Of a stretch of DNA of 64,000 bases, positions 16,743 through 19,704 are shown one piece after another (position 1 is the first letter of the stretch; each line of letters begins with the position of its first letter). The notes under the pieces were generated by a model. The model made no database searches. It saw only the letters and a program-made list of their open reading frames with translations, and was not told the origin of the DNA. The stretch covers positions 9,086-73,085 of the forward strand of contig JBBDJV010000020.1 in the NCBI GenBank assembly GCA_040879725.1, read 5' to 3'. Source of the DNA: Minisyncoccota bacterium (GTDB lineage Bacteria; Patescibacteriota; Minisyncoccia; Phycocordibacterales; GCA-2401445). Made by a program: the position numbers and the translations under genes.

Positions 16743-19271
16743 CTACTTGGAGACAATAACCCACCCCTCGTTCTTGATGAGGTTTTCGGCTTTTTTATAC
16801 TTCATTGTTTCTTGTTTTCCGTCTTTTTCAATGGTCACAACATCATTTCGGCCATATTTTGAGTCACCTTTTTCAACCACACCACTGCGGGTTATCATCT
16901 TTGCATTTTTCACCACGCTATTGGCTACTTTTAACTCAAGTGAGTTTGGACCAGCTCCTCCGGGTGAAAAATGTTCAAGTACGCGCTCAATCTGCCCATC
17001 TACTGAGTCATTGAATTCTTTGAACAAGCGCAATCCTTCCTTTTTATACTCAACAAGAGGGTCTCTCTGTCCGTACGCACGCAAGTTTACACTACTTCGC
17101 ATATAATCCATTACCTCGAGGTGCTCAATCCAATACATGTCGATTGTCTGTAGGTAAAGCTGTCTAAATGCTGTCCAGAAACGTTCTGGCTCAATTTCTG
17201 CTTTTATTTTTTCAATGTGACTGCGTGCAATTTCATTTTGCTGAAGTCGCTCTTCGAGTAATTCTTCGAGCTTTTCCTGATCAGCTAACAATATAGTTCT
17301 TCGTTTCTCATACACACTTCTTCTTTGCTGATTCAATACGTCGTCGTACTGAAGTACGTGCTTTCTGCTATCAAAGTAATGTCCTTCGATTTTCGTTTGA
17401 GCACTTTCAAGCGTTCGAGTAATCATCTTGTTTTCAATCGGCTGATCCTCTGGAATACCGAAACTTCCCATTACGCGTTTGAGTGTATCAGACGCAAAAA
17501 CTCGCATTAGATGGTCCTCAAGTGATACAAAGAACTGCGTTTCGCCCGGGTCTCCCTGTCGTCCTGAGCGACCTCGAAGCTGGTTGTCTATTCTGCGCGC
17601 TTCGTGTCTCTCGGTTGCAATTACGAACAATCCTCCCAAACTTTTCACTTCCTCGTATTCTTCCTCCGACCCTGGGTTACCTCCCAGCTTAACGTCCACT
17701 CCTCGCCCTGCCATATTGGTAGCAATGGTAACTTTGCCTTTTGTTCCCGCCTGCGCGATGATCTCTCCTTCTCTTTCATGGTTTTTTGCGTTCAATACTT
17801 CATGCGGTACGCCTTCTTTAGTGAGGTACGCGGAAAGTAGTTCGTTCTTCTCGATTGAAACCGTTCCTATCAAAACAGGTTGTCCTTTTGAGTGGAGCTC
17901 TTTAACTTTTTTTGCTATAGCACTAAACTTCCCTTTTTCAGTTTGAAAAATGAGATCATTCCTATCAATACGAGCAACCGGCTTGTTTGTTGGAACAATA
18001 ATGGTAAGCAGGCCGTACACTTTAAGAAACTCTTCCGATGAAGTAACAGCAGTACCTGTCATACCCGCAAGCTTGTCGTACATACGGAAATAGTTTTGAT
18101 ACGTAATCGAAGCAAATGTTCGCGTCTCTTTTTGAATGGGAACATTTTCTTTTGCTTCTATTGCTTGGTGCAGACCCTCAGACCATCTTCGCCCTGGTTG
18201 CAAACGTCCGGTAAATGGATCAACAATTACCACTTCTCCATTACGCACTACATACTCGATATCCTTTTTGAAAAGTGCTTTCGCGCGAACTGCTGTCTCA
18301 AGATGATGAACATACTTTATTCCTTTATCAGTATAAATATTTTCAACTCCAAGACTCTTTTCTGCTTTCTCAATACCGGAATCAGTAAGAGTAATAGCCT
18401 TTAGCTTTTCATCCACTTCAAAATCTTCTCCCGTTTTAAGCGTACCGGCAATACGAGCGAATTGAGTGTAGAAATCTTCAGATTCTCCTGCTGGTGCTGA
18501 AATAATAAGCGGAGTTCTCGCTTCATCGATAAGAATGGAGTCTATTTCATCGACAATCGCAAGGTTGTGTCCTCTTTGGCGTATTTTATTTTTATCGTAT
18601 TCAATATTGTCACGCAGATAGTCAAAGCCAAACTGACTATTTGTTCCATATGTTATATCGGCAAGGTACGCTTCTTTTCGCGTACACGGACGAAGGTATT
18701 CATAGCGAACTTTAAACGATCCAAGTGTATCTCGAAGTTCATCTATCTCTTCTCCTTCAGGTATGGTGTGTTCCGGATCATAAATATATGATTCATCACC
18801 ACTGATTATTCCGACGCTTAATCCAAGGAAACTGTACACCTGGCCCATCCACACAGCGTCACGTCGAGCAAGGTAATCATTTACCGTTACCACATGCACA
18901 CCTTTTTCTGTTAGTGCGTTTAAGTATGCAGGAAGTGTTGCAACAAGAGTCTTACCTTCACCGGTTCGCATTTCTGCAATTCCTCTTTCATGCAAAATCA
19001 TTCCTCCAATAAGCTGAACATCGAAATGTCTCTGCTCAAGTGTTCGTTTGGAAGCTTCCCGGACAAGCGCAAACGCTTCCGCGAGAAGATCATCGAGTGT
19101 GCTTCCATCTTTAATCTTCTCCTTTAACTTCTCTGTTTCTTTTACAAAGTCCGCATCGGAAAGTGCACTAAAACGGCTTTCCAGAGCGTTAATTTGTTCC
19201 ACCTTTGGTTGAAGGCGTTTGAGAGCTTGTGAAGTTTCGTCACCAAATATTTTTGCGAATAAACCTGCCAT
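16743..19271 (-). CDS. secA: Preprotein translocase subunit SecA
   Basis: MAGLFAKIFGD...GEGKTLVATL...DEIDSILIDEARTPLIIS. The ATG at 19271 gives an 842-aa protein. The track's longer TTG-initiated ORF to 19460 runs through a terminator and another gene's repeats. Confidence 0.9.
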   Translation of the reverse strand: MAGLFAKIFGDETSQALKRLQPKVEQINALESRFSALSDADFVKETEKLKEKIKDGSTLDDLLAEAFALVREASKRTLEQRHFDVQLIGGMILHERGIAEMRTGEGKTLVATLPAYLNALTEKGVHVVTVNDYLARRDAVWMGQVYSFLGLSVGIISGDESYIYDPEHTIPEGEEIDELRDTLGSFKVRYEYLRPCTRKEAYLADITYGTNSQFGFDYLRDNIEYDKNKIRQRGHNLAIVDEIDSILIDEARTPLIISAPAGESEDFYTQFARIAGTLKTGEDFEVDEKLKAITLTDSGIEKAEKSLGVENIYTDKGIKYVHHLETAVRAKALFKKDIEYVVRNGEVVIVDPFTGRLQPGRRWSEGLHQAIEAKENVPIQKETRTFASITYQNYFRMYDKLAGMTGTAVTSSEEFLKVYGLLTIIVPTNKPVARIDRNDLIFQTEKGKFSAIAKKVKELHSKGQPVLIGTVSIEKNELLSAYLTKEGVPHEVLNAKNHEREGEIIAQAGTKGKVTIATNMAGRGVDVKLGGNPGSEEEYEEVKSLGGLFVIATERHEARRIDNQLRGRSGRQGDPGETQFFVSLEDHLMRVFASDTLKRVMGSFGIPEDQPIENKMITRTLESAQTKIEGHYFDSRKHVLQYDDVLNQQRRSVYEKRRTILLADQEKLEELLEERLQQNEIARSHIEKIKAEIEPERFWTAFRQLYLQTIDMYWIEHLEVMDYMRSSVNLRAYGQRDPLVEYKKEGLRLFKEFNDSVDGQIERVLEHFSPGGAGPNSLELKVANSVVKNAKMITRSGVVEKGDSKYGRNDVVTIEKDGKQETMKYKKAENLIKNEGWVIVSK

Positions 19272-19296
19272 AGAGCTGATATAGTAGCATAAATAT

Positions 19297-19334
19297 AAAA
19301 AACCTCCCAGACGTGAATCTGGGAGGTTTTTTTT
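19297..19334 (-). terminator. Hairpin terminator between the Lys-rich gene and secA
   Basis: AAAAAA-CCTCCCAG-ACGTGAAT-CTGGGAGG-TTTTTTTT: an 8-bp stem with A/T runs on both sides. Confidence 0.65.
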
Positions 19335-19341
19335 GAAAGAC

Positions 19342-19497
19342 CTATCGCTTCTTCTTAGCAGGCTTTCGCTTTGTTGTCTTCTTCGCAGCCTTCTTTTTTG
19401 CAGGCTTTCGCTTTGTTGTTTTCTTAGCCACCTTCTTCTTAGCTGGCTTTCGCTTAGCAACTTTCTTCTTAGTTGCCTTTTTCTTTTTTGCTGGCAT
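19342..19497 (-). CDS. Lys-rich histone-H1-like small basic protein (MPAKKKKATKKKVAKRKPAKKKVAKKTTKRKPAKKKAAKKTTKRKPAKKKR)
   Basis: ATG at 19497, stop at 19342-19344, and a terminator hairpin immediately downstream. It is built from about three imperfect tandem 45-bp DNA repeats encoding (T)KRKPAKKK units. It is in a different frame from the spurious SecA N-terminal extension. Confidence 0.5.
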   Translation of the reverse strand: MPAKKKKATKKKVAKRKPAKKKVAKKTTKRKPAKKKAAKKTTKRKPAKKKR

Positions 19498-19704
19498 GTT
19501 TATTTTTTATTATTGATAACGGAGTGTGTTTTTACTTGTCGACCCTCCTCACCTGAGAAGCCTAAAACGCAAGCAAGCACACTTCTGTATCCTTATTATC
19601 GTACACGGTTGTGTTTGCTTCAATACAAAAAAATATTTTTTTGTGGATAACTTTTTTTCAGAAAAAATTTTTAAAATATTTTTTTGTAAAAAATAAATTT
19701 AATT

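Follow-up and report, generated by a model that had tools for sequence, protein, structure and literature searches.

The stretch analysed here, 64,000 nucleotides (nt) of a Minisyncoccota bacterium (contig JBBDJV010000020.1, positions 9,086 to 73,085) and called the window in the following, carries a short lysine-rich open reading frame (ORF) directly upstream of secA. Does this low-complexity ORF encode a protein and, if so, what might such a protein do? The original prediction, made from the letters of the window, was that the ORF is an unannotated gene for a basic, histone-H1-like protein and that an N-terminal extension of SecA running into it is an artefact. On comparative sequence grounds, we find that the Lys-rich ORF is a genuine and conserved gene, which is selected as a protein and is independent of secA. 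As for function, we are about evenly divided on the reading that we prefer, namely that the product would be an abundant, nucleic-acid-binding polycation that resembles just the tail of H1, whose target is probably the nucleoid and whose expression is possibly controlled by DnaA.

The ORF runs on the minus strand from ATG 19497 to TAG 19344-19342. Its 51-codon frame has the translation MPAKKKKATKKKVAKRKPAKKKVAKKTTKRKPAKKKAAKKTTKRKPAKKKR, which is exactly the protein that had been predicted. The gene and the features that overlap or adjoin it are as follows.

19342..19497, minus strand: protein-coding gene for a 51-amino-acid (aa) Lys/Ala/Thr/Pro/Arg polycation (ORF translation and orthologue comparison)
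19348..19455, strand not assigned: in-frame tandem repeat with a period of 42 nt and 2.6 copies (Tandem Repeats Finder)
19297..19332, minus strand: intrinsic terminator of A8, a 9-bp GC-rich stem and T6, beginning 9 nt past the stop codon
19333..19650, plus strand: antisense shadow ORF of 105 aa, rich in Leu, Ser, Cys and Phe and longer than the 51-aa sense gene

The peptide contains 26 Lys and 4 Arg residues and no Asp or Glu, with a charge of about +29.5, an isoelectric point of 12 and a mass of 5.8 kDa. Lys accounts for 51% of the residues, followed by Ala (18%), Thr (10%), Pro (8%) and Arg (8%). Leu, Ile, Phe, Trp and Tyr are all missing from the 51 residues, and a hydrophobic core is therefore impossible. 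The ORF opens directly with MPAKKKK, and no other domain was found in searches of Pfam and NCBIfam.

To compare the ORF between genomes, we used a SecA-based retrieval, which yielded 80 loci from species-representative genomes and 80 loci from metagenomes. Essentially all of them are metagenome-assembled genomes of Paceibacteria/Parcubacteria-type Patescibacteria, and their SecA proteins are 53-70% identical to that of the window. Presence of the ORF was counted in the 141 loci that have at least 350 nt upstream of secA. In 110 of these, we observed a Lys-rich ORF without acidic residues on the strand of secA; its length is 12-106 aa (median 45), and a median of 102 nt separates its end from secA. 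We also looked for an interruption of the Lys frame in relatives, and in these 110 loci the frame is intact. Over 5374 residues, the family consists of K (45%), A (22%), R (9%), V (9%), T (7%) and P (4%), with one L, three I and not a single D, E, W, F, Y, C or N. Residue 2, A or P in 105 of the 110 proteins, is of a kind that promotes cleavage of the initiator Met, and the C-termini consist of a K/R run or of KRA.

When the same detector of Lys-rich ORFs was applied to the complete window, the 51-aa ORF was the only stand-alone match. Control loci where the gene is absent beside secA (about 230 kb, both strands) gave one match, at L073 610-885, and this match is a relocated family member that carries the family leader. 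From this rarity in the window and in the control loci, we conclude that the Lys-rich ORF is not a chance occurrence.

The pattern of substitutions indicates that the ORF is selected as a protein. Three alignable close pairs of orthologues have 29 synonymous compared to 2 non-synonymous codon differences. In one pair, L117/L142, third codon positions take 26 of the 32 substitutions, and 2 of 87 residues differ in the Lys frame, whereas 14-28 differ in each of the other five frames. Codon choice is distinctive as well: AAG makes up 61% of the Lys codons in the family compared to 36% in the adjacent secA (21 of 26 compared to 23 of 66 in the window). This preference would be consistent with an avoidance of slippery poly(A) tracts, and the longest A-run in the family ORFs is 9. 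The in-register antisense frame is open in all 76 orthologues of at least 30 aa. This is because the sense strand has no TTA, CTA or TCA codons, and the comparison of L117 with L142 revealed no protein-level conservation of the antisense frame. In one close pair, the nucleotide identity of the non-coding flanks (93% and 92%) is higher than that of the ORF (88%) and of secA (82.5%). A separate observation concerns L062 and L149, which encode identical 51-aa proteins by ORFs that differ by 2 synonymous bases, and whose first 600 nt of secA are just 75% identical in an ungapped comparison. This contrast could reflect unusually strong conservation of the small gene or a mis-registration of the two secA starts.

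Much of the gene consists of tandem repeats. Tandem Repeats Finder reports a period of 42 nt at 19348-19455, with 2.6 copies and 86% matches, and this DNA period corresponds to three 14-residue protein units, RKPAKKK(V/A)AKKTTK. The original prediction named a repeat of 42-48 bp, which is acceptable, and in its title one of 45 bp, which is slightly off. Internal tandem repeats are present in 89 of the 106 distinct orthologous ORFs, with periods of 9-114 nt that are a multiple of 3 in 88 of the 89. Some of these repeats are 98-100% identical, and we thus conclude that in-frame expansion is recurrent and lineage-specific. The length variation predicted for such repeats is seen between species (12-106 aa); a search for closer relatives that could reveal copy-number variation within a species returned none, as the best other SecA is 70% identical and one contig is 100% identical. 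We infer that selection preserves charge and composition and that length drifts by in-frame expansion and contraction of the repeats.

How is the gene separated from secA? Three features of the window bear on this.

16743..19271, minus strand: secA coding sequence proper, 842 aa, starting with MAGLFAKIFGD (independent gene call and SecA alignments)
19272..19460, minus strand: artefactual 63-codon upstream extension of the secA ORF, running through the secA promoter, the terminator and, in a frame other than that of the Lys ORF, the Lys repeats
19281..19289, minus strand: extended -10-like element TGCTACTAT, probably secA's own promoter, which ends 9 nt before the secA ATG

The long ORF of the ORF track (16743..19460) has 905 aa and a TTG start. 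In a comparison with solved SecA structures, residues 64-183 of this ORF align to chain residues 1-119, whereas residues 1-63 have no match. An independent gene call on an identical Logan contig lets SecA begin at the 842-aa ATG 19271, and tblastn matches among orthologous SecA loci begin at query residues 1-8. Orthologous SecA proteins have no conserved N-terminal extension, and in only 17 of 111 loci can the secA frame be followed upstream into the Lys ORF without a stop codon. Thus, the extension was correctly recognized as an artefact.

A terminator right after the ORF had also been proposed and is indeed present, although its stem was understated as 8 bp. The core is a perfect 9-bp G+C-rich stem (CCTCCCAGA/TCTGGGAGG), and the A8/T6 flanks extend it to 16 possible pairs. 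A terminator-like hairpin followed by a T-run lies between the Lys ORF and secA in 104 of 111 loci. In addition, the motif TAnnnT, often with an upstream TG, ends 5-12 nt 5' of the secA ATG in 75 of 107 loci, compared to 14 of 110 when a control position was used, and the -10 is of the type TGnTAnnAT. A separate promoter for secA is therefore probable, and since this -10-type element ends so close to the ATG, the secA mRNA in these bacteria is probably leaderless or nearly so. No Shine-Dalgarno (SD) sequence was found before secA or before the Lys ORF. The gene order Wzy-like gene, murB, Lys ORF, secA is conserved, and murB lies upstream in all 67 loci that hold one. As the conserved order includes murB and the Wzy-like gene, we interpret it as a synteny block and not as a secA-specific coupling. 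In L073, a 91-aa Lys-rich gene (L073:519-885) is located about 2 kb upstream of secA and has kept a leader of the Kaiserbacteria type (match to the covariance model R1, see below, E = 2.5e-8); the gene can therefore relocate as a unit.

Upstream of the gene, we found a promoter that contains a conserved box.

19642..19650, minus strand: TTATCCACA box, identical to the DnaA-box consensus, at about -62 to -54 from the inferred transcription start
19624-19641, minus strand: A/T-rich tract resembling an upstream-promoter (UP) element, preceding the -35 hexamer
19618..19623, minus strand: -35 hexamer TTGAAG (promoter scan)
19595..19600, minus strand: -10 hexamer GATAAT (promoter scan)

The TTATCCACA at 19650-19642 is the sole exact copy in the window and lies 18 nt upstream of TTGAAG-N17-GATAAT. 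The 9-mer fits the DnaA-box pattern TTATNCACA and is identical to the consensus of high-affinity DnaA boxes in E. coli and B. subtilis. Exact copies are present in 75 of 104 orthologous upstream regions and copies with at most one mismatch in 101 of 104, compared to a background of 6 exact copies in 613 kb. The box has the same orientation in 106 of 110 matches, and by far the most orthologous promoters place it 41-44 nt from the -10. These promoters have the -35 consensus TTGTnT with a 17-nt spacer to GATAAT, and nATAAT (positions 2-6 of the -10) occurs in 94-96 of 96. The box suggests that the supply of the peptide may be coupled to DnaA, i.e. to replication status. The conserved DnaA-box promoter, together with the leader motif described below, is new here and went unnoticed in the original prediction.

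We rejected the idea that TTATCCACA is a generic promoter motif, as there is one exact copy in the 64 kb of the window and copies with one mismatch lack the layout of box, 41 nt and GATAAT. An origin of replication (oriC) was rejected as well, as there is no cluster of boxes and the cumulative GC skew declines monotonically from one end of the window to the other. With a skew that is negative everywhere, the window lies within one replichore. Homologues of dnaA and of hupA/HU were found neither in the window nor in the related loci by tblastn, and no oriC was found there either.

The same exact box, in the same orientation, also occurs about 60-80 nt upstream of a second gene family in several related loci (L052:7353-8424 and 8437-; L003:8018; L030:7724; L029:7548; L002:5684; L019:7510). 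The proteins of this family start with M..I.V.GK.YISSKRAAxxTGYSxDYVGQLAR, and the L052 member, which has 342 aa, combines a pair of HTH_17 domains (PF12728, E = 6e-7) with a hydrophobic (membrane) helix at its C-terminus. The box-bearing HTH_17 gene and the Lys-rich gene may form a small shared regulon, in which DnaA would control both.

Between promoter and ORF lies a leader with the following elements.

19498..19588, minus strand: 5' leader of about 90 nt, start inferred, with a fold of -25.2 kcal/mol (z = -2.9)
19582-19568 / 19538-19524, minus strand: outer stem of the leader (predicted fold)
19560-19545, minus strand: inner hairpin of the leader (predicted fold)
19539..19544, minus strand: hexamer GGTCGA (GGUCGA in the RNA), conserved across orthologous leaders

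The distance from the -10 to the ATG ranges from 43 to 186 nt in the orthologues. We detected GGTCG[AG] in 89 of 96 orthologous leaders, where about 0.04 would be expected, and GGTCGA is mostly positioned 27-42 nt before the ATG. Conservation is limited to this hexamer, and its flanks vary. A predicted hairpin closes at most 8 nt upstream of the hexamer in 50 of 85 leaders, and in about 20 leaders the hexamer is at the very 5' end of the RNA. Across 61 orthologues, G accounts for 0-11% of the 26 nt before the AUG, with a maximum of 7% from -25 to -1; neither an SD sequence nor a fixed -10 element was found in these nucleotides. In a subgroup of Kaiserbacteria-type leaders, 6 of the 9 pairs in the hairpin have undergone compensatory changes. 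The covariance model of this subgroup, R1, matches only leaders of Lys ORFs in 654 kb (both strands) and does not match the leader of the window. The latter is a different subtype, and common to both is only the layout of a hairpin, GGUCGA and a G-poor stretch. Searches of Rfam gave no credible match to the leader of the window at E <= 1 and none in nine orthologous loci at E <= 0.1; across the window, nothing reached the gathering score, and there was no tRNA, rRNA or known riboswitch. We conjecture that GGUCGA, which would be located at the 5' edge of the ribosome footprint, serves translational control.

Other explanations of the hexamer were considered and rejected. GGTCGA could be the -35 of a second, leaderless promoter, and its spacing of 30-36 nt to the ATG would fit; however, there is no -10 at a fixed distance (at most 0.67 bit at every position from -26 to -1), and the preceding hairpin covaries as RNA. 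A 7-codon upstream ORF starting from (A/T)TGCGGTCGAA was dismissed, as several members read cAGCGGTCGA and have no start codon. GGUCGA is also not a general element, as the window is not enriched in it (13 copies compared to 19 expected).

Why has this family been overlooked? The gene calls for the identical Logan contig leave the position of the Lys ORF empty, and ten of ten orthologue sequences, including the one of 106 aa, are absent from a collection of 15 billion proteins. The ORF was thus aptly described as unannotated. One gene call in ENA (P0002, between murB and secA) is unnamed and has a false 31-aa N-terminal extension that reaches into the leader. Gene callers miss or mis-start members of the family, and most miss them. 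The antisense shadow ORF, which is longer than the sense gene, is a trap for gene callers. Full-text literature searches yielded no description of such a protein in Patescibacteria.

Searches for homologues of the peptide are uninformative because of its biased composition. Using phmmer on candidates that share words with the peptide, we found no match at E <= 1e-3 and three weak matches at E <= 10. Nothing in Pfam or NCBIfam was above threshold for the window peptide. HC2 (PF07382) reached 8.4 bits (E = 2.8) where the cut-off is 40 bits, and it did not match the 106-aa orthologue; Hc1 (PF07432) was absent from the Pfam matches even at E <= 10, and the Linker_histone model had no match. The peptide had been assigned to an Hc1/AlgP/H1 type. 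The resemblance in composition holds, but the comparison with H1-like proteins and Hc1, which we ran as profile searches, gave only the sub-threshold match to HC2 and thus no homology.

What does the product resemble? Among the closest known kinds are the tail-only H1 of trypanosomatids and the C-terminal domain of eukaryotic H1. Like this domain, the peptide does not fold by itself, is rich in Lys, Ala, Pro and Thr, acid-free and of low complexity, and contains motifs that resemble (S/T)PKK and AKKA. By analogy, it would be expected to neutralize and condense DNA electrostatically. Unlike H1/H5, it has no winged-helix globular domain, is short (51 aa, 12-106 in relatives) and bacterial, and shows no detectable homology. 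In effect, the product amounts to the C-terminal tail of linker histone H1 made as a protein by itself.

Hc1 and Hc2 (HctB) of Chlamydia are DNA-condensing polycations whose likeness to the window peptide is compositional. They share with it Lys-rich repeats and a length that varies with repeat number (PMC2848022). However, Hc2 has 165-237 aa and matches the peptide far below the cut-off, Hc1 does not match it, and promoter and leader are different, with chlamydial expression being developmental. Pseudomonas AlgP and PhaF, with their KPAA/AAKP tails, also have Lys/Ala/Pro tandem repeats that are encoded by DNA repeats, and they bind polyanions, namely polyphosphate granules (PMC9239181) and mRNAs (PMC12818456). 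These proteins are several-fold longer and join the repeats to other domains (N-terminal, phasin or other), whereas here the repeat tail is the whole protein. Low-complexity Lys/Ala/Pro repeats are also found in mycobacterial Ku and Hlp (PAKKA repeats) and in Streptomyces TopA, where such tails modulate or stabilize DNA binding (PMC3553676, PMC5714199). Those tails are appendages of enzymes or nucleoid-associated proteins, whereas the tail in the window is an independent gene with promoter, leader and terminator. In L054, folded proteins carry a similar Lys/Ala/Val-rich tail at their N-terminus (L054:892-1170 and L054:8137-8526), and one of them resembles an AbrB/SpoVT-type DNA binder. The tail is therefore also a module in these genomes.

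Taken together, we propose the following mechanism. The gene is a self-contained monocistronic unit spanning 19650..19297 on the minus strand. A strong sigma-70-type promoter (TTGAAG-17-GATAAT), with the box about 58 nt upstream of the start, would drive a transcript of about 290 nt. In this transcript, a structured leader would end in GGUCGA and be followed by about 40 nt of G-poor, SD-less RNA, the 51-codon ORF and the intrinsic terminator, and secA would be transcribed next from its own promoter. The peptide, with a charge of about +30 and no acidic, aromatic or bulky hydrophobic residues, has no possible globular core and would act by bulk electrostatics, coating and neutralizing polyanions. 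We favour bulk electrostatics because the peptide cannot fold and because length varies nine-fold among orthologues with charge and composition held. The likeliest target would be chromosomal DNA, which would be compacted into a nucleoid in very small cells. DNA is favoured because in Hc2, Ku and TopA it is DNA that tails of Lys/Ala/Pro repeats bind, or protein-DNA complexes that they stabilize (PMC2848022, PMC3553676, PMC5714199), and because the promoter carries a replication-initiator box. DnaA would read this box and thereby tie the supply of the peptide to replication status. We infer that the peptide binds nucleic acid, that its target is the nucleoid and that the box is read by DnaA.

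Several points weigh against this reading. The gene is missing from the position beside secA in 22% of the loci. A polycation would bind RNA, ribosomes or polyphosphate as readily as DNA, and the H1-like tails of Pseudomonas act on polyphosphate granules (AlgP, PMC9239181) and on mRNAs (PhaF, PMC12818456). A phmmer search of 1.84 billion representatives gave no match at E <= 1e-3, and homology to any characterized DNA-binding protein cannot be established by sequence search. The suggested role of DnaA derives solely from the identity of the box to the consensus, and the HTH_17 protein, whose own gene bears the same box, could instead read the box and autoregulate.

Among the alternatives, a polycation acting on RNA or ribosomes, e.g. 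as a charge neutralizer of rRNA, a hibernation-type factor, an RNA chaperone or a translation activator, is rather unlikely, though the most probable of them. The composition would suit RNA as well as DNA, and the strong promoter with its UP-like tract resembles those of genes of the translation apparatus. Furthermore, in Firmicutes the slot upstream of secA is held by the hibernation factor hpf. The H1-like disordered region of PhaF provides a precedent, as it binds mRNAs and activates translation (PMC12818456). Yet ribosomal proteins are fixed in length and sequence, whereas this family spans 12-106 aa with lineage-specific repeat expansions; no ribosomal-protein family was matched in Pfam or NCBIfam, and the DnaA-box-type promoter element points to replication and not to translation. 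That the purely cationic peptide binds or organizes polyphosphate, or is a genetically encoded substitute for polyamines, we consider improbable. AlgP, an H1-like Lys/Ala/Pro-repeat protein, spaces polyphosphate granules (PMC9239181), but it has sequence features beyond its repeats. In addition, the gene context is devoid of ppk or other polyphosphate genes (the neighbours are murB, the Wzy-like gene, secA and glycosyltransferases), and the DnaA-box sequence has no tie to polyphosphate. It is very improbable that the peptide is exported as an antimicrobial or cell-penetrating effector by which an episymbiont acts on its host, even though many Patescibacteria live host-attached, short polycationic peptides can permeabilize membranes, and the gene adjoins secA. 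The peptide has no signal peptide and no hydrophobic face, the neighbours include no partner genes for processing or export, and a non-amphipathic protein of up to 106 aa is atypical of such effectors.

The position of the ORF also invites the idea of a cis-acting leader peptide for secA, either a monitoring substrate of the SecM type or an attenuator based on poly-Lys stalling. Like the SecM-type upstream ORFs, it is a small unannotated ORF right upstream of secA on the same strand (78% of loci), and poly-lysine tracts can stall ribosomes. We consider this highly improbable. Unlike SecM, MifM, VemP and Apc/Apd, the peptide has no signal or transmembrane segment (criterion ii of PMC10987492), and it also departs from the description of monitoring substrates given there in that it lacks a C-terminal arrest motif such as RAPP/RAGP. 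The sequence does not indicate co-transcription with secA, as the strong terminator (104 of 111 loci) and a separate -10 of secA intervene. Moreover, the AAG enrichment avoids slippery poly(A) runs, the L073 copy has kept its leader about 2 kb away from secA, and the conserved order reaches to murB and the Wzy-like gene, so that the linkage is not specific to secA. Hardly credible, finally, is the idea that the stretch is non-coding, i.e. a purine-rich RNA or repeat, or that the antisense ORF (19333..19650, plus strand, 105 aa) is the real gene. Gene callers usually skip the sense ORF, and the antisense frame is longer than it in the window and open in 76 of 76 orthologues; however, an open antisense frame is automatic when the sense strand has no TTA, CTA or TCA. 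The 26 of 32 substitutions at sense third positions and the 2 of 87 residues changed, compared to 14-28 elsewhere, speak for the sense frame, and ATG, small residue 2, stop, promoter, leader and terminator are all sense-oriented.

Returning to the nucleoid polycation, the findings can tentatively be joined into a broader reading, which is possible but which we would not call probable. Paceibacteria, and perhaps other ultra-small Patescibacteria, would compact their chromosome with a 'tail-only linker histone', an abundant peptide of 12-106 aa whose transcription would be wired to DnaA via the box at about -58. An undescribed leader element, consisting of a structured 5' part, GGUCGA and a G-free landing pad, would control its SD-independent translation. 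As gene callers pass over it, the entire family would be hidden from present annotation. The same box on the gene of the membrane-anchored HTH_17 protein would then define a small regulon for chromosome organization.

If true, a whole class of candidate-phyla bacteria would possess a chromatin-like component that belongs to their core, is probably abundant and has no entry in protein databases. This would bear on the packing of DNA in cells near the lower size limit of life. The fixed-position DnaA-box sequence offers a testable link between replication control and a nucleoid polycation, and the GGUCGA leader is a candidate for a new cis-regulatory RNA element. The locus also bears on the annotation of small ORFs, as the false SecA extension and the antisense shadow ORF are both longer than the true gene, and on the annotation of SecA start sites. 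Furthermore, the family may serve as a natural experiment in which selection acts on charge and composition and not on sequence or length.

Lastly, the box was observed at one further site. In L040 (L040:5850-6440), a TTATCCACA box and a TATAAT-like -10 are followed by about 550 nt that are relatively G+C-rich. This stretch contains only overlapping short ORFs in several frames and has no Rfam match at the gathering score; it may represent an unclassified structured RNA.

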